From an archaeon (lineage in GTDB: Archaea > Asgardarchaeota > Thorarchaeia > Thorarchaeales > Thorarchaeaceae), in assembly GCA_024275415.1 (NCBI GenBank), contig JAJRZD010000014.1, positions 32,633 to 64,632 of the forward strand: a stretch of 32,000 nucleotides of DNA, written 5' to 3'. Position 1 is the first letter of the stretch. Each line of letters starts with the position of its first letter. The translations under genes were made by a program, and so were the position numbers. The notes beneath the pieces were generated by a model. That model was given only the letters and a program-made list of their open reading frames with translations. It was not told the DNA's origin and did no database searches. Shown here one piece after another: positions 2,367-9,392 of the stretch.

Positions 2367-2538
2367 CTTTCACTTCTCCTGTTCATGTCAGAAAGACACG
2401 AATCACATTCAGATTCTATTTTAGTTTATTAAACATGCGACATGACACTTTTTTGCGACCAGTTGATTCATATATTCATTTTATCTACTATCAATGTGAG
2501 GGAACATCAACATCACGATTAAAGGAGCATGAGGGTCG

Positions 2539-3609
2539 ATGGTACGAATTGCTCATATCTCGGATTCCCATTTGGGTTCATCAATGTTCCAGTTGATAGA
2601 ACGACGGGAGGATGCGCGGGCGTGCCTGAAGAAGGCGGTTGACATGGCACTCCGTCACTCTCCAGACATCCTCGTTCACACTGGAGACCTCTTTGATTCT
2701 CCTGAGCCACATCCTGACGATATCAATCATGTGCTAAAGATATTCAAGGATATAGAAGACACTAAAGTCATTGTACTTCACGGGAACCATGACATCCCCT
2801 ACGGATACAAATATCACCACAGTCCGATTCGCTATCTTGAAACTGTCGAGTTTGTTATGACGACCGGGGACAATCCCAGTAGTGTTCACCAGTACGATAT
2901 TGACGGAAAGCAGGTTGATATCCATCTGATATCTTGGACGAGAAAGAAACAATTCCAGAAAATACTAGGTGACATGGAACCTGAGTCCGACATTGCCGTT
3001 CTCTTTGCCCATGATATTCCAGTTGAAATTGATGAGCTACCTATACACTATGATTATATCGGGCACGGACACTCGCACAATTTCAAACTGGATGAGGATA
3101 TGGCGATTGGTTGCCCTGGTTCCACACATATCATCGATTGGAAAAGGGAGCTTGGCAAAAAACGGAAACTGATTGTTGCTGATATTGACAAGAATGGAAC
3201 TGAATTCACCACTGAAACATTGAACGATATCCGAGAATTCAAGTTTCATCCTGGTTTAGATATCACTGGACTGGATGCTCAGTCAGCCAATATCAAGATG
3301 AAGGACTGGCTGAAGAATCTCTCACCAAAGAAAAAAGACCCCCCTATTGTCATCGTGCGAGTGAATGGTATGATATTCGCAGAAACTGAGAAAGGGATTG
3401 AACGTAACTCGTTGATTGAATTTGGCGAGAAGCACCTGAATCCCTTGTTTCTGCACATCGAACCGAACTGGAATGTCGTTGGTCCTCCCGAACTGGATTT
3501 ATCGCGCCCTTTGGATGTGAAACGCTCGTTGGAAGAATACATGGAGTTCAAAAAGGATCCCAAGAAAGAACTTGTAATAGAGGAGCTTCAGAAGATACTC
3601 GGAGAGTAG
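2539..3609 (+). CDS. mre11: Mre11/SbcD-family metallophosphoesterase nuclease
   Basis: Motifs DSHLG, GDLFD, GNHD, AH and GHGHSH; directly upstream of a Rad50-like ATPase (4-nt gap). Confidence 0.85.
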   Translation: MVRIAHISDSHLGSSMFQLIERREDARACLKKAVDMALRHSPDILVHTGDLFDSPEPHPDDINHVLKIFKDIEDTKVIVLHGNHDIPYGYKYHHSPIRYLETVEFVMTTGDNPSSVHQYDIDGKQVDIHLISWTRKKQFQKILGDMEPESDIAVLFAHDIPVEIDELPIHYDYIGHGHSHNFKLDEDMAIGCPGSTHIIDWKRELGKKRKLIVADIDKNGTEFTTETLNDIREFKFHPGLDITGLDAQSANIKMKDWLKNLSPKKKDPPIVIVRVNGMIFAETEKGIERNSLIEFGEKHLNPLFLHIEPNWNVVGPPELDLSRPLDVKRSLEEYMEFKKDPKKELVIEELQKILGE

Positions 3610-3613
3610 CAGG

Positions 3614-4906
3614 ATGCTTAGACAGTTACGTATGACAGATTTCAAAGTGTTCAATGAAATCGACTTTCAGTTCTCGCAGGGCATAACCGCTATAGTAGGA
3701 CCTAACGGGTCTGGAAAGACCACCATCCTAGAGGCAATCGAGTTTGCACTCTTTCGTCAGGTGACAAGAAAGGAGAAGACTGTTCGCAATTTTGAGGACT
3801 TCATTAGACATGGAAGAAAACGGGCCATTGTCGAGCTTGAGTTCAGGGCTCCAGTAAACAGGCGGTTCTATCGAGTAACAAGGTCAATTCATCCTGGGAA
3901 GACGAATGCTGATCTGTATGATGATGCTGGTTCAGACCCTATTGTGTCAGGTCCTACAAAGGTCGACGATGAGATTGTTCGACTGATTGGCATGGATCGT
4001 CATGCTTTCTCCACCCTCACATACGTTCGCCAAGGGGAGATTGATCGCCTCTCACGGCTTCCACCTAAGAAGCGCAGGGCAGACCTCTATAGTATGATGG
4101 GTCTTGGCATTTATGATAAGACCGAGGATCGCGTTCAGAAACAGATCCGTGAGTTGAAGAAACGGATGTCATCTGTAGAGGACACAAAGCAAAGGCTTGA
4201 ATCTATCAAGTCACATCTGCCAGCGCCAGATGAGATAGCGTCGTCAAGGGAATCGCTTGAACGTATTAAGGACAAGCTTGGCGAGAGTGATGACATCGTC
4301 CAGATATTGGGAGTCATAGAAAAAGTAGAAACATCTCTCCAACGTGTCATTGACCATCTCAATTCGCCAGAGCTGACCAATGAATACGAGGAGATGAAGG
4401 AGGAACGTGAAGCCGCAAGTTACCTTAAAGAGATACTCGGGGTTCTTCCAGAAGTGGCAGAGAGCCAACTGAAACCTGAGATTAGATCAGAGGCACGAGA
4501 GATCTTTAGAGGTATATTTGGTGACCGATACAGTGACCTTGTCATAGATGAGGACTATAATGTATCCCTGTATGATCTCAGAGGTCACAGGGTTAGCCTT
4601 ACTGCTGCATCAGGAGGAGAGGATGTCTGTGTGAATTTCGCCCTTCGTGTCGCAGTGAACACAGCACTCCAGAAGCAAGCAGCTCATAGAATACCTCCTC
4701 CGGGTATCATCATACTTGATGAGCCTGGGGCGGGGTTGGACACTCAAAGAAGAAAATGGCTGCCTATGGCAATAGCTGGTCTGAAAACAGTTGATCAGGT
4801 TCTCGTGGTCACACACATGGAGGAGCTGAGGGAGTCTGCAGACCGGATTGTCCTTTTGACCCCTCAAGGAAAACAGAGGCAACCCATGGTCGATGTCATC
4901 GAGTAA
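3614..4906 (+). CDS. Rad50/SbcC-like SMC-family ATPase, unusually short (430 aa), no zinc hook
   Basis: Walker A GPNGSGKTT, Q-loop YVRQGEI, signature ASGGE, Walker B/D-loop IILDEPGAGLD, H-switch VVTH; about 135-aa helical insert between the head halves. Confidence 0.85.
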   Translation: MLRQLRMTDFKVFNEIDFQFSQGITAIVGPNGSGKTTILEAIEFALFRQVTRKEKTVRNFEDFIRHGRKRAIVELEFRAPVNRRFYRVTRSIHPGKTNADLYDDAGSDPIVSGPTKVDDEIVRLIGMDRHAFSTLTYVRQGEIDRLSRLPPKKRRADLYSMMGLGIYDKTEDRVQKQIRELKKRMSSVEDTKQRLESIKSHLPAPDEIASSRESLERIKDKLGESDDIVQILGVIEKVETSLQRVIDHLNSPELTNEYEEMKEEREAASYLKEILGVLPEVAESQLKPEIRSEAREIFRGIFGDRYSDLVIDEDYNVSLYDLRGHRVSLTAASGGEDVCVNFALRVAVNTALQKQAAHRIPPPGIIILDEPGAGLDTQRRKWLPMAIAGLKTVDQVLVVTHMEELRESADRIVLLTPQGKQRQPMVDVIE

Positions 4907-6288: not shown

Positions 6289-7050
6289 ATGGAAATACGA
6301 GCGATTCTCCTTGATCTGCACCATACATTGACCACTACAAAATCATCTGTCATCGATGTGGTACGCCAAATCATGAATAATCACGGACTGGACACATCAC
6401 ATCTTAGTGATGCCCTGTTCGTCGCTGCCTTAGATAAGGCAGACCAAGTAATGGCGTCCTATCAGGTATCGAACAATGTTGGTCCTCACTGGGGAGCGGA
6501 TCCTGAGGATTGGTTGATGTTCGACAGGATTTTCCTTGAGGAGTTGGGTTTTCATGGTTTCACGGATGATGATATTCTCACTATTGAGAATGAGTTCAAA
6601 GCTATTACCCGTGACAGTGATTGGGAATACTTTACTGAGGACGCATTGTCAGCGATCAGGACACTTCATGCTATGGGTTTCACTCTTGGGATATGTACGA
6701 AACGGAACGACAACCCTCAGGGGTTCCTATCACGAAGCAAAGTAGCAGACCTCTTCGAAACAGTTCAGTGGTCTGGGGTGGCGGGCTATGCCAAGCCAAG
6801 TCCCTATACCTTGCTTGAGGCGGTGAAGGAGATTGGAGTGAATCCCCGTCGCTGTCTTTTTGTGGGTAATTATGTCGGGGTTGATGTCGAAGCTGCACTC
6901 AGATGTGAGATGATTCCTGTGTTGCTCTCATGGGCAAACCCTCGTGAAGCCGACAAAGCCCCGCCAGAATGCATTGTATTGGACAAGCCTACTGATCTTG
7001 TAGAATGGATTCGTTCACAGTCCCCTCATCTCCGACAGGATTCGGAGTAG
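6289..7050 (+). CDS. HAD-superfamily hydrolase with non-canonical motifs
   Basis: Start MEIRAILLDLHHTLT (motif I-like); LGICT (motif II); AKPSP (motif III); FVGNYVGVDVEAA (motif IV). Confidence 0.8.
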   Translation: MEIRAILLDLHHTLTTTKSSVIDVVRQIMNNHGLDTSHLSDALFVAALDKADQVMASYQVSNNVGPHWGADPEDWLMFDRIFLEELGFHGFTDDDILTIENEFKAITRDSDWEYFTEDALSAIRTLHAMGFTLGICTKRNDNPQGFLSRSKVADLFETVQWSGVAGYAKPSPYTLLEAVKEIGVNPRRCLFVGNYVGVDVEAALRCEMIPVLLSWANPREADKAPPECIVLDKPTDLVEWIRSQSPHLRQDSE

Positions 7051-8323
7051 GTTTCTCCTGTTTGGCGAAAAGTCGATTCCTCAGGTTTCTGAATCGGATA
7101 CCTATGGATTTCGTGAATGCCATTACCAGCCGTGCCGGGAGTACGGCGAATCCAAGAACGATCCTCATCGCCTTGGATTTCATAGTACCTTTCTCTGGGT
7201 ATCCGATGTAGGCGAGTGTATGTTCCTGTAGAATATCCTGCAAAGCGACTGCAAAGGCCTGTGTCACGACATTTGAGAGACCCAGCCCTTTGAAGACATC
7301 GTTCTCGCTGAACTCTTTCCTATCGATTACGCTTTTCCATTTGATGTACTTGGCTTTCTCGATGATGTCATTGAGGGCATAGACAAGTTCTCCTAGATAC
7401 GGTGCTAGTGTTTGTTCAACAACTGTCGGCTCAGGACTTGAATTGAATTCGTGATATATCTGTTTGGCGGGCTCAAGTCCTCGTACAGGTGGCTTGAACC
7501 AGAGGATGTGCAAAAGCCCTTCAACCTCACGTAGTTTCCCATTCATCCGCCTTTCGAGTTCTGCTGGTATCTTGTCTTGCACGACTTCCTTTGCCTTGGA
7601 GAAGGCGTTCATATGGAGTTCTTTCCATGTCCTCTCCAGATCGATTACCGCCTTTGCGTATCTATAGAACTTGAAGTCAAGAGCGTGTTCGATATCCTCA
7701 GTTGTGAGCACGATGATTTCATTGGTACTGTATGTAAGTCCTCCTGACGCCATCTCCCATAGTCGCTGGTTCATGTCAAGTGGGTGCCTTTTATCCCGCG
7801 GGATTTCTAAGCGCATGGCATGGTCGCCAGGCTGAGCTACAATGTAACAGTGGTTCAGGACATCTTCTACCGAATCGAACATCGTCAGTTCGGTGGGGAG
7901 CAGATCCATTGCACCATGACCGGTCGTTGACCAGCAGATCATTCTCCCAGTTTCGTTATCTCTTTCGATGATGACCCTCTCTTTATCTCCCAGATGGTCA
8001 AACTGGTCTGTGAGGCCCTTACTGTATGCCATAATCCCATAGAGCACGAACCTCTCCTTGTTTGGCAAGAGTCCTGGCATTTTGAGGATGAACCCAATCG
8101 TATCAAGCGGCTTTCCAGAGGACAACCATGCACCAGTTGCTTGATTCCATTCCCAGCGGTCTCCAAGCTTGTAAAATATCTCTCTGAGGGTTTCCAGATC
8201 CTTCGCCTCTTTTGCCTTTTGCAGTGTCTGAGCTTCCCATTGTTCATACTCCCTCTTCATTTTGAGCATGCTTTTGCGCTCGATTTCGAGCCAGCTAGAT
8301 TCAATCTTGAGACTTACTTTCAT
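6989..8323 (-). CDS. Hypothetical protein (possible NPP1/Vps62-like H-x-G-D-x-E domain)
   Basis: 444-aa open frame with protein-like composition; start could be 8323 or an internal ATG; 3' end overlaps the HAD gene by 62 nt. Confidence 0.7.
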   Translation of the reverse strand: MKVSLKIESSWLEIERKSMLKMKREYEQWEAQTLQKAKEAKDLETLREIFYKLGDRWEWNQATGAWLSSGKPLDTIGFILKMPGLLPNKERFVLYGIMAYSKGLTDQFDHLGDKERVIIERDNETGRMICWSTTGHGAMDLLPTELTMFDSVEDVLNHCYIVAQPGDHAMRLEIPRDKRHPLDMNQRLWEMASGGLTYSTNEIIVLTTEDIEHALDFKFYRYAKAVIDLERTWKELHMNAFSKAKEVVQDKIPAELERRMNGKLREVEGLLHILWFKPPVRGLEPAKQIYHEFNSSPEPTVVEQTLAPYLGELVYALNDIIEKAKYIKWKSVIDRKEFSENDVFKGLGLSNVVTQAFAVALQDILQEHTLAYIGYPEKGTMKSKAMRIVLGFAVLPARLVMAFTKSIGIRFRNLRNRLFAKQEKPTPNPVGDEGTVNESILQDQ

Positions 8324-8417: not shown

Positions 8418-9392
8418 TTAAGAACCGGGAATGACCGATAATATCTCTTCGATAACGTCTCGCAAGTACTCCAATCTATCTGGAGTTTCAATGAATGTAC
8501 TCGTATTTCTGAGATTTACATTCCTATGTATATATGTCAGTTCCATAGTCCGTTCATTGTGGTTCGCTATCACCCAGTCCGAAATCTCTCTCTGAAACAA
8601 CCTGTTTTTGATAGATTCAATTATTCTGGTATCAGCCTCAATAACGAGCCTCTCATTATCTTTGGATGAAATCCCTATATAATATCGGATACTGACACCG
8701 TCCACCTCTGTAGCGACAAAGAAATCATGGATTGCTCTTTTTCCATTTCTGACTTTCCAAACCACACTTTGGAGTAAGTCCATAGTCATATTGGCGAAGA
8801 GAGCCATCCTTGATGTAACAAAATACTCAAGATGTGAAAGGTCATCCTCAAAGTATCTGTACGATGGGAAGTAATTCTTTCCGTAATAATAGGATAAACT
8901 GCTAAGGACACCTAGCACTATTCCGGAACTCAGACTCGTAATTTCACAGTAACCATTGAAGAGGACAAAAGCTGTACTGAACACAGTCCAGATTATTATA
9001 GAGAACCAGACAAGATCCATTATGTCGTCTATTTCTGCATCATCTGCCTTCATGGCCTGATAATGGAACCCCTCGAAGATTCTTTGGATATCTGAATTAT
9101 GGGTTTCTTGAATCTCATCTTCCCATCCTTCACCGAGTAACGCGGGATCCTGAAGATACAATGCTGTCCTTGCGTTTTCGCCCAGCTGATTAGAATAGCG
9201 TGTGTAGAACAGTCCCGTAAGTAACTGAATTGCGGCGAAGAGAATTGCAGCGAGCAGCGGGATCTCGGTAGTACAAACGATTGCTACTATTATACTATAG
9301 ACTGCGACTACTGGCACATTAAGAATGATGAACCTCCGGTCATGCCAACTCACTTCCGACGAGTCTATTATGACCTGCTCATGGGTTGACAT
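8418..9392 (-). CDS. Hypothetical membrane protein (about 4 TM helices)
   Basis: 324 aa; two pairs of hydrophobic segments separated by a soluble loop, then a soluble C-terminal domain. Confidence 0.7.
   Translation of the reverse strand: MSTHEQVIIDSSEVSWHDRRFIILNVPVVAVYSIIVAIVCTTEIPLLAAILFAAIQLLTGLFYTRYSNQLGENARTALYLQDPALLGEGWEDEIQETHNSDIQRIFEGFHYQAMKADDAEIDDIMDLVWFSIIIWTVFSTAFVLFNGYCEITSLSSGIVLGVLSSLSYYYGKNYFPSYRYFEDDLSHLEYFVTSRMALFANMTMDLLQSVVWKVRNGKRAIHDFFVATEVDGVSIRYYIGISSKDNERLVIEADTRIIESIKNRLFQREISDWVIANHNERTMELTYIHRNVNLRNTSTFIETPDRLEYLRDVIEEILSVIPGS

Follow-up and report, generated by a model that had tools for sequence, protein, structure and literature searches.

A Mre11-Rad50-type gene pair with a drastically shortened, hook-less Rad50 in Thorarchaeaceae

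A short rad50-like gene follows a mre11-like gene in a Thorarchaeota genome

The 32,000-nucleotide stretch of DNA analysed here (the window) comes from contig C116, which belongs to a Thorarchaeota (Asgard) metagenome-assembled genome that spans 3.5 Mb and is 92.9% complete. It encodes a Mre11-like nuclease (P0001) followed by a Rad50-like ATPase that we call mini-Rad50 (P0002; Table 1). Comparisons of both proteins with known families indicate that they constitute a real Mre11-Rad50 (MR)-type pair, a lineage-specific compact paralogue in which the Rad50 arm is drastically shortened and lacks a zinc hook. The zinc hook and long arms are treated as defining and functionally indispensable parts of Rad50 and SbcC. 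An initial annotation, made from the DNA alone, had singled the pair out as a top candidate for an undescribed system. In agreement with this, the literature that we searched contained nothing pertinent on short or hook-less Rad50 in Asgard archaea and no description of a cellular hook-less Rad50 of ~430 amino acids with a complete Mre11, though a mention in the ATP-binding cassette (ABC) ATPase classification of Krishnan et al. is still possible.

The stop codon (TAG) of the mre11-like gene and the ATG of the mini-Rad50 gene are separated by 4 nt, and a GGAG-type ribosome-binding site can be read ahead of the P0001 start codon.

The nuclease subunit resembles archaeal Mre11

P0001 matches the Pfam family Metallophos (6.7e-13) and the NCBIfam model Mre11_Sulfo (5.4e-23), in the latter case with 81.8 bits and thus below the curated Mre11 cut-off of 500. 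The five phosphoesterase motifs (DxH, GD, GNHD/E, H and GHxH) are all present, and residues D9, H11, D50, N83, H84, H158, H178 and H180 are invariant among 20 orthologues. An AlphaFold2 (AF2) model with a predicted local distance difference test (pLDDT) value of 91.8 shows a nuclease domain and a capping domain, connected by a linker of ~12 residues to a pair of C-terminal helices. The best Foldseek match of this model is full-length Methanocaldococcus jannaschii Mre11 as solved in complex with Rad50 (3av0_A, E 9.6e-19, 386 alignment columns); 4tug is matched as well, with E values for the two M. jannaschii Mre11 structures ranging from 1e-18 to 1e-17. In the C-terminal region, P324, L325 and Y334 are invariant in the same orthologues. 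The models thus describe P0001 as a Mre11 with a putative tail that resembles the Rad50-binding domain.

Mini-Rad50 has a complete Rad50-type ATPase head

P0002 contains the Pfam domains AAA_23, SMC_N and SbcC_Walker_B. Its best NCBIfam models are archaeal Rad50 equivalogs (1.8e-45 to 6.5e-38), each matched in two or three pieces; the top model, Rad50_Sulf (1.8e-45), is matched with 155 bits and thus below the equivalog cut-off of 1000. The closest solved structure in a PDB sequence search is M. jannaschii Rad50 (3aux, 6e-38). An AF2 model built on 27 orthologues (pLDDT 86.8) gives a similar picture in Foldseek, where the top 20 matches are all Rad50 or SbcC. M. jannaschii Rad50 leads (3auy_A, E 2e-24, template modelling scores 0.69/0.79; 3auy_A and 5dny_D both at about 1e-24) and is followed by Pyrococcus furiosus Rad50, Escherichia coli SbcC and human RAD50.

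The initial annotation described all ABC-ATPase motifs as intact, and a wider sampling bears this out. The Q-loop residue Q140 is invariant in the 27-sequence alignment, as are S333, G334, G335 and E336 of the signature, D369 and E370 of Walker B, D376 and H401. Among representatives of the wider family described below, the signature is found in 122 of 122, Walker B in 120 and the H-loop in 119. The only cysteine of P0002 (C339) lies in the head, within EDVCV, just as the annotation had stated, and CxxC occurs nowhere in the protein.

Several other families of ATPases were considered and rejected. The RecF model TIGR00611 reaches 60.1 bits against a cut-off of 172 and covers residues 2-81 only, while RecN reaches 41 bits against 408 and matches only the N-terminal P-loop region; the annotation had named RecF as the kind of short family to which P0002 might prove to belong, and these scores place the protein in neither. 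Membership in arcadin-4 or ASRP was rejected with scores far under the cut-offs.

The family also has a basic insertion of its own, TRKEK, behind the Walker A helix (window positions 3752-3781, residues 47-56), with R52, K53 and E54 invariant. M. jannaschii Rad50 has a 5-residue gap opposite this insertion in a pairwise alignment. The insertion may provide an extra DNA contact.

A short arm with a predicted dimerising apex replaces the hooked coiled coil

The two halves of the P0002 head are separated by only ~135 residues, as the initial annotation had noted, and its reading of four short helices broken by proline and glycine agrees with the AF2 model. The model contains an ascending helix (residues 165-201), two apex helices (205-222 and 226-249) and a descending helix (256-302), with breaks at LPA(P), GES and NSPELT. 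Hydrophobic positions spaced by three to four residues are conserved through all four helices. Column entropy is 0.87 bits in the heads, 1.59 in the stalk and 2.25 in the apex. The joint between stalk and apex is marked by the invariant residues L202-P203 and P279 and by S251, which is almost invariant. At the stalk base, Y167, K169, K176, L271, K272, L275, P279, A282 and E283 are near-invariant, a pattern of conservation that matches what would be expected if the Mre11 tail docks there. The label "head-only" that the annotation attached to the complex does not fit, since a conserved stalk of ~37 residues and a two-helix apex remain and self-association of the arms is modelled.

This self-association emerged when residues 160-305 were modelled as a two-chain complex, which scored 0.69, with 0.00 for the best of three controls. 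Three runs shared 100% of contacts, and the pLDDT of the partner was at least 77. The mark applied to such complex scores is reached by 20 of 30 proteins whose solved structure is a pair of one chain and by 1 of 23 whose structure is a single chain, counts that are only rough for the arm because its model used our own alignment. The predicted contacts are two-fold symmetric (198:198, 218:218, 231:231 and 234:234) and the residue numbers of each cross contact add up to a constant ~442, which together imply a parallel four-helix bundle over residues 180-253. Relative to other positions in this range, the predicted interface is better conserved (1.81 versus 2.40 bits) and richer in large hydrophobic residues (0.35 versus 0.22). 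Some of this conservation comes from the core within each chain, so it lends modest support to arm pairing. Overall, the modelling supports pairing of the short arms in a helical bundle, so an apex that dimerises may have taken the place of the zinc hook.

The short form is a conserved family that descends from Rad50

We identified more than 120 full-length relatives of P0002 at 57-74% identity in a search of 5.8 billion clusters. All are 419-446 amino acids long. Their source assemblies come from NCBI, JGI, ENA and Logan, and the contigs that carry them reach 814 kb. The distance from Q-loop to signature, measured in 121 of 122 representatives, is 185-192 amino acids in these 121. CxxC is absent from all 122 proteins, seven of which have a stray cysteine in the arm.

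These relatives bear directly on the idea that in this particular genome the short Rad50 stems from a collapsed assembly or from gene decay. Coiled-coil repeats are prone to collapse in assemblies, a canonical rad50 of the same genome is broken across two contigs, and one relative (G143) carries a decayed copy. A protein length that is constant within ~27 residues across 122 representatives of independent assemblies, together with an intact reading frame, a conserved arm register and high model confidence, nevertheless makes such an artefact vanishingly improbable. The initial annotation had asked for a check for a collapsed assembly and had allowed for close relatives with a full-length hooked Rad50 at the same locus; the short form recurs in the independent assemblies, and relatives carry it at this locus instead.

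An exhaustive HMMER search of 1.84 billion representatives returned only three full-length 50%-identity clusters of the mini form (P0075, P0122 and P0124), and all other matches above E 1e-27 were longer. A set of 149 further representatives covers the nearest longer relatives, and 140 of these have a mid-protein CxxC. The nine without it are the mini family itself with fragments, plus two proteins of 596 and 679 amino acids that have a transmembrane hairpin in the position of the hook. The nearest relatives are hooked Rad50s of 530-1000 amino acids, most of them 640-1000, and the shortest full-length protein outside the mini family in this set has 530. In a head-only maximum-likelihood tree (quick search), the mini clade is monophyletic, with a Shimodaira-Hasegawa-like approximate likelihood ratio (SH-aLRT) support of 97. 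Its sister group is the transmembrane-hairpin clade (94), and it falls within neither Rad50 paralogue of its own genome. These sequence relationships indicate that mini-Rad50 descends from Rad50.

The transmembrane-hairpin ATPases (596-679 amino acids, no CxxC; L021:4855-7824 and also L022; P0128, P0129 and P0382) are the closest longer relatives and form a group of their own. A hydrophobic stretch of ~40 residues at the arm apex is the probable transmembrane hairpin. Each ATPase gene is preceded by a 379-amino-acid Mre11-like gene whose product is 26% identical to P0001, and in L021 the adjacent genes encode an MmeI-like type IIG restriction-modification protein and an Hjc-like protein. This pair could be a membrane-anchored MR-like complex. 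The clade was not found in 201 Asgard genomes.

The gene pair is vertically inherited and repeatedly lost

We sampled 150 genomes across the phylum and found full-length orthologues of mini-Rad50 only in the family of the window (Thorarchaeaceae), save for one copy at 37-38% identity in a genome of a second family of the same order. Elsewhere in the sample, only the heads of long Rad50s match. The Mre11-like gene is present in 32 of 61 genomes of the order and in 12 of 17 genera. Three genera lack it in every member sampled, and its presence varies within two others. The presence of the two genes coincides, with the exception of a case at a contig edge (G120) and of G143, and they are adjacent in every complete case, including the divergent copy of the sister family. 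That copy has PIN_12 and KaiC-like ATPase genes as neighbours, and Cas6 lies ~2 kb away.

Within Thorarchaeaceae, the pair always adjoins a Pyr_redox/HAD block and thus occupies one syntenic slot in at least six genera. Divergence of the pair between genera (51-58% identity) resembles that of the flanking genes (45-64%). In one genome that is 99% complete (G037), an empty stretch of 113 bp separates the Rce1-like and Pyr_redox genes, which makes this an exact empty site when compared with the filled locus L012. In G143, a remnant occupies the slot (contig C26; L026:4366-5187): the Mre11-like gene and ATPase codons 1-155 have been deleted, and what is left, codons 156-430, contains two frame shifts. 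The single slot, the empty site, the remnant and the neighbour-like divergence thus indicate that the two genes are a self-contained cassette that was inherited vertically from the family ancestor and has been lost repeatedly. The repeated loss implies that the pair is dispensable, while the nearly invariant heads and conserved stalk base point to purifying selection on it where it is kept.

Hooked Rad50 systems coexist with the mini pair

The genome of the window encodes two complete nurA-herA-mre11-rad50 loci with hooked Rad50s (G000, C9:76655-82548 and C20:36710-42999). The C20 Rad50 has ~700 amino acids and a CPTC hook. The C9 rad50, with a CPRC hook, runs off the end of its contig and resumes on C37, the two contig ends sharing an exact overlap of 141 nt (C9:80515-82548 and C37:33113-34060); the break falls inside the coiled-coil region and represents an assembly break, not a disrupted gene. 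A structural maintenance of chromosomes (SMC) protein with a hinge is encoded on C71. An SMC-like class of ~1125-1140 amino acids recurs beside the ~1200-amino-acid SMC in Thorarchaeaceae genomes.

A hooked Rad50 of ~700 amino acids occurs in almost all of 31 genomes of the family. In two of them, contig edges leave it in fragments, and G108 has a 637-amino-acid frame beside a 694-amino-acid hooked-type one. A ~940-amino-acid type occurs in 7 of the 31 genomes and the mini form in about half. We therefore rejected the idea that mini-Rad50 is the sole Rad50 of some genomes: the mini pair is a dispensable third MR module and never the only MR system.

The search for a canonical Rad50-HerA-NurA locus that the initial annotation had proposed thus yielded two, but the length of 850-900 amino acids that it took as the archaeal norm misfits this lineage, where the universal hooked form is ~700. 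Its suggestion that the pair is an additional complex stands; altered regulation, specialised repair and a nuclease against mobile genetic elements are candidate readings of its role.

Neighbouring genes and features of the locus

Upstream of the pair, the window encodes a flavin adenine dinucleotide (FAD) oxidase, an SCP2 protein and a rubrerythrin; downstream lie a Pyr_redox_2/Rubredoxin_C oxidoreductase, a HAD hydrolase and two orphan genes. A connection to DNA metabolism is not evident among these neighbours. Neither herA nor nurA is present in the window, as the annotation had reported for the vicinity of the pair, or in the related loci inspected. We rejected a functional tie to the rubrerythrin, NAD(P)H oxidoreductase and HAD genes because the sister-family copy has other neighbours. 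An operon with the right-hand block was likewise rejected, as the block persists where the pair is absent, which indicates synteny.

The two orphans (6989-8323, minus strand, 444 amino acids; 8418-9392, minus strand, 324 amino acids) are conserved and have no Pfam match. Both accompany the Pyr_redox/HAD block in every Thorarchaeaceae locus inspected, with or without the MR pair. In genomes without the pair, a RadA/Rad51-family gene and an XPD-like helicase gene (DEAD_2/Helicase_C_2) lie beyond a GH3 gene (L018:11700-15820; G103, contig C1), which is probably unrelated synteny.

Table 1. Features of the mini MR locus (window coordinates)
Feature	Position	Strand	Description
Presumed promoter of the two-gene operon (inferred)	2367..2538	+	172-bp AT-rich spacer upstream of the pair with TATA-like stretches
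Mre11-like nuclease P0001	2539..3609	+	356 amino acids; phosphoesterase domain, capping domain, short linker, C-terminal helix-loop-helix
P0001 C-terminal helices, residues 327-337 and 343-353	3517..3597	+	Position of the Rad50-binding domain in canonical Mre11; AF2 secondary structure
Mini-Rad50 P0002	3614..4906	+	430 amino acids; ABC ATPase head interrupted by a helical arm of 135 residues
Walker A GPNGSGKT, residues 29-36	3698..3721	+	G29, N31, G32, G34 and K35 invariant, the rest nearly so; 122/122 representatives
Arm, residues 165-302	4106..4519	+	No Cys in the P0002 arm; no CxxC in the family; AF2 model
Apex module, residues 202-255	4217..4378	+	Bounded by invariant L202-P203 and near-invariant S251(-P252); predicted homodimer interface within 180-253
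C-terminal head motifs	4610..4816	+	Signature SGGE 333-336, Walker B IIILDE 365-370, D-loop GAGLD, H-loop H401

A probable compact nuclease for DNA ends or hairpins

We think it probable, on balance, that the pair acts as a compact ATP-gated nuclease for DNA ends or hairpins that dispenses with long-range tethering. A Mre11 dimer would combine with two mini-Rad50 ATPases (M2R2) to form the nuclease. By homology, the C-terminal helix-loop-helix of Mre11 would dock on the conserved base of the short Rad50 stalk, and ATP-driven engagement of the heads would control whether DNA can reach the nuclease, as it does in SbcCD and MR. The arm, composed of a ~37-residue stalk and the two-helix apex, would measure perhaps 8 nm if extended and would therefore be unable to bridge distant DNA molecules in the manner of hooked Rad50. 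Sensing and cutting of DNA at the level of the heads would thus be kept and long-range tethering given up. Since the pair would work without an adjacent HerA-NurA, it would resemble bacterial SbcCD more than the archaeal resection operon, and it appears to be an ancestral chromosomal addition that the cell, which also has hooked Rad50 systems, can do without.

Modelling extends this proposal to the apex, where the zinc hook appears to have given way to a proline-bounded helical segment on each arm, the two of which pair in a parallel four-helix bundle. Such pairing would close a very small ring that admits only a free DNA end or a single duplex. In a bolder version, which we put forward tentatively and regard as somewhat doubtful, the ring would be closed permanently, with a width that fits one duplex, and so provide a strict, tether-free gate for ends and hairpins, possibly directed against linear viral or plasmid DNA. 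In the published end-capture model, continuous DNA between the Rad50 arms blocks their closure, and closure on a single duplex is the cutting state (PMC10586767). Combined with a very short closed ring, this model would predict a stringent gate for ends or hairpins.

Several points weigh against these proposals. Rad50 function suffers when the arm is shortened by engineering, as seen in yeast and phage T4, and gating with a short arm is accordingly hard to explain. The apex model was built from isolated arm fragments, and zipping from residue 180 leaves only ~15 residues per arm to span two engaged heads, a geometry that may be incompatible with bound DNA. Repeated loss and a decayed copy also mean that the pair is not needed for viability, so repair is only a putative role.

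The main rival to a tether-free end or hairpin nuclease is that the pair serves as an anti-virus or anti-plasmid nuclease, in which a Rad50-derived sensor recognises foreign DNA ends or hairpins and Mre11 destroys the DNA; we judge this unlikely, though deserving of serious attention. The accessory distribution across the order, with loss within genera, an empty site and a pseudogene, is what such a system might display, and PADLOC matches P0002 to the ATPases mad3 (6.9e-37), LmuB (1.6e-19, residues 16-197), PbeC and DndD. Lamassu has been described as descended from SbcCD through arm shortening (PMC12663957), and MAD3-MAD4 provides a published example of a 2:2 defence module built from a short ABC ATPase and a nuclease (PMC13662399). 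The sister-family copy near Cas6 and PIN_12 and the MmeI-like restriction-modification gene beside the closest longer clade also fit a defence role. The PADLOC matches, however, cover only the ATPase head. Membership in MADS was rejected because the partner is a metallophosphoesterase, neither Toprim MAD4 nor other mad genes lie nearby and only the ATPase resembles mad3; membership in Lamassu was rejected because LmuA and LmuC are not adjacent and the LmuB match is partial. In Thorarchaeaceae, no methylase, immunity or other defence gene is linked to the pair. Its occupancy of one chromosomal slot across genera and divergence at the pace of its neighbours point to vertical descent, not island turnover, and this stable position argues somewhat against a mobile defence island. 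A viral origin was also rejected: an IMG/VR scan with the family patterns GGEDVCV and VVTHM[EQD]E found no relative, and phage records match only the N-terminal head and cover at most 57% of the protein, both weak negatives.

It is also conceivable, if considerably less probable, that the complex is mainly a sensor or regulator of DNA damage or structure, with Mre11 nuclease activity secondary, and that it possibly feeds substrates to the hooked HerA-NurA-Mre11-Rad50 systems. Three MR-type systems in one genome suggest a division of labour, and the pair has no resection partners of its own; yet the invariance of eight metal- and phosphate-binding Mre11 residues and of the Rad50 catalytic glutamate would be unexpected if catalysis were dispensable.

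The compact end or hairpin nuclease that we favour would be informative about MR complexes in general. Here, a cellular lineage appears to keep a Rad50 without hook or long arm under purifying selection, beside hooked versions in the same cell. Having lost about four fifths of the arm along with the zinc hook, mini-Rad50 illustrates what an MR machine can shed in nature and, as a natural experiment, could show which functions of MR depend on head, stalk base or apex. If the apex does stand in for the hook, neither long arms nor zinc would be needed for regulated MR nuclease activity. The predicted full-length M2R2 complex, at ~180 kDa as computed from chain lengths, could be studied structurally without engineered truncations. 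The pair may also represent an intermediate in the compaction of repair complexes into other roles, as in Lamassu.

Comparison with known systems

Short-armed phage MR proteins and Rad50-derived defence ATPases with reduced arms are already known; apparently new here is a cellular, hook-less Rad50 of ~430 amino acids with a complete Mre11. RecF and RecN are similar to mini-Rad50 in overall size and likewise carry a short helical insert in an ABC head, but they are bacterial and have no Mre11 partner, and the RecF match is confined to the first ~80 residues (60 bits versus 172).

The T4-type phage gp46 proteins keep the hook. Viral clusters of 544-570 amino acids are nearest to mini-Rad50 by language-model features, and only the N-terminal head of phage records aligns to it, at 24-34% identity. 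The gp46-type proteins are more than 100 amino acids longer than mini-Rad50, whose family is chromosomal and archaeal. Natural shortening is known from the T4-type gp46/gp47 complex, which has arms of ~100 Å (PMC7752040).

Lamassu LmuB and MADS MAD3 share with mini-Rad50 a Rad50-like head, a reduced helical insert, a nuclease partner and a small assembly (PMC12663957; PMC13662399). Their partners differ, being Cap4-type and similar effectors with LmuC or the Toprim protein MAD4, where the mini pair has a complete Mre11.

Bacterial SbcCD resembles the mini pair in being a stand-alone two-gene nuclease-ATPase operon without HerA-NurA, and its ATP-gated cleavage of DNA ends and hairpins is the model that we apply to the pair. 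E. coli SbcC (7yzp_C) is a fold match of P0002 (E 1.4e-20). SbcC, however, has ~1050 amino acids and a hook, and its similarity to P0002 (TIGR00618, 1.1e-25) is weaker than that of archaeal Rad50.

The archaeal Mre11-Rad50 complexes of M. jannaschii and P. furiosus (3av0, 5dny and 3qkt) provide the best sequence and fold matches for both subunits. The mini pair differs from them in lacking the CxxC hook and linked herA and nurA, in an arm of ~135 residues versus ~500-600, in profile scores far under the cut-offs (155 versus 1000 and 82 versus 500), in the short Mre11 linker of ~12 residues and in the TRKEK insertion. It shares with them the ATPase and phosphoesterase motifs, the order of mre11 and rad50 and the C-terminal helix-loop-helix of Mre11, and at 430 amino acids the natural mini-Rad50 is about the size of the engineered head-plus-stub constructs (339-372 amino acids) from which the M. 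jannaschii and P. furiosus crystals were obtained.

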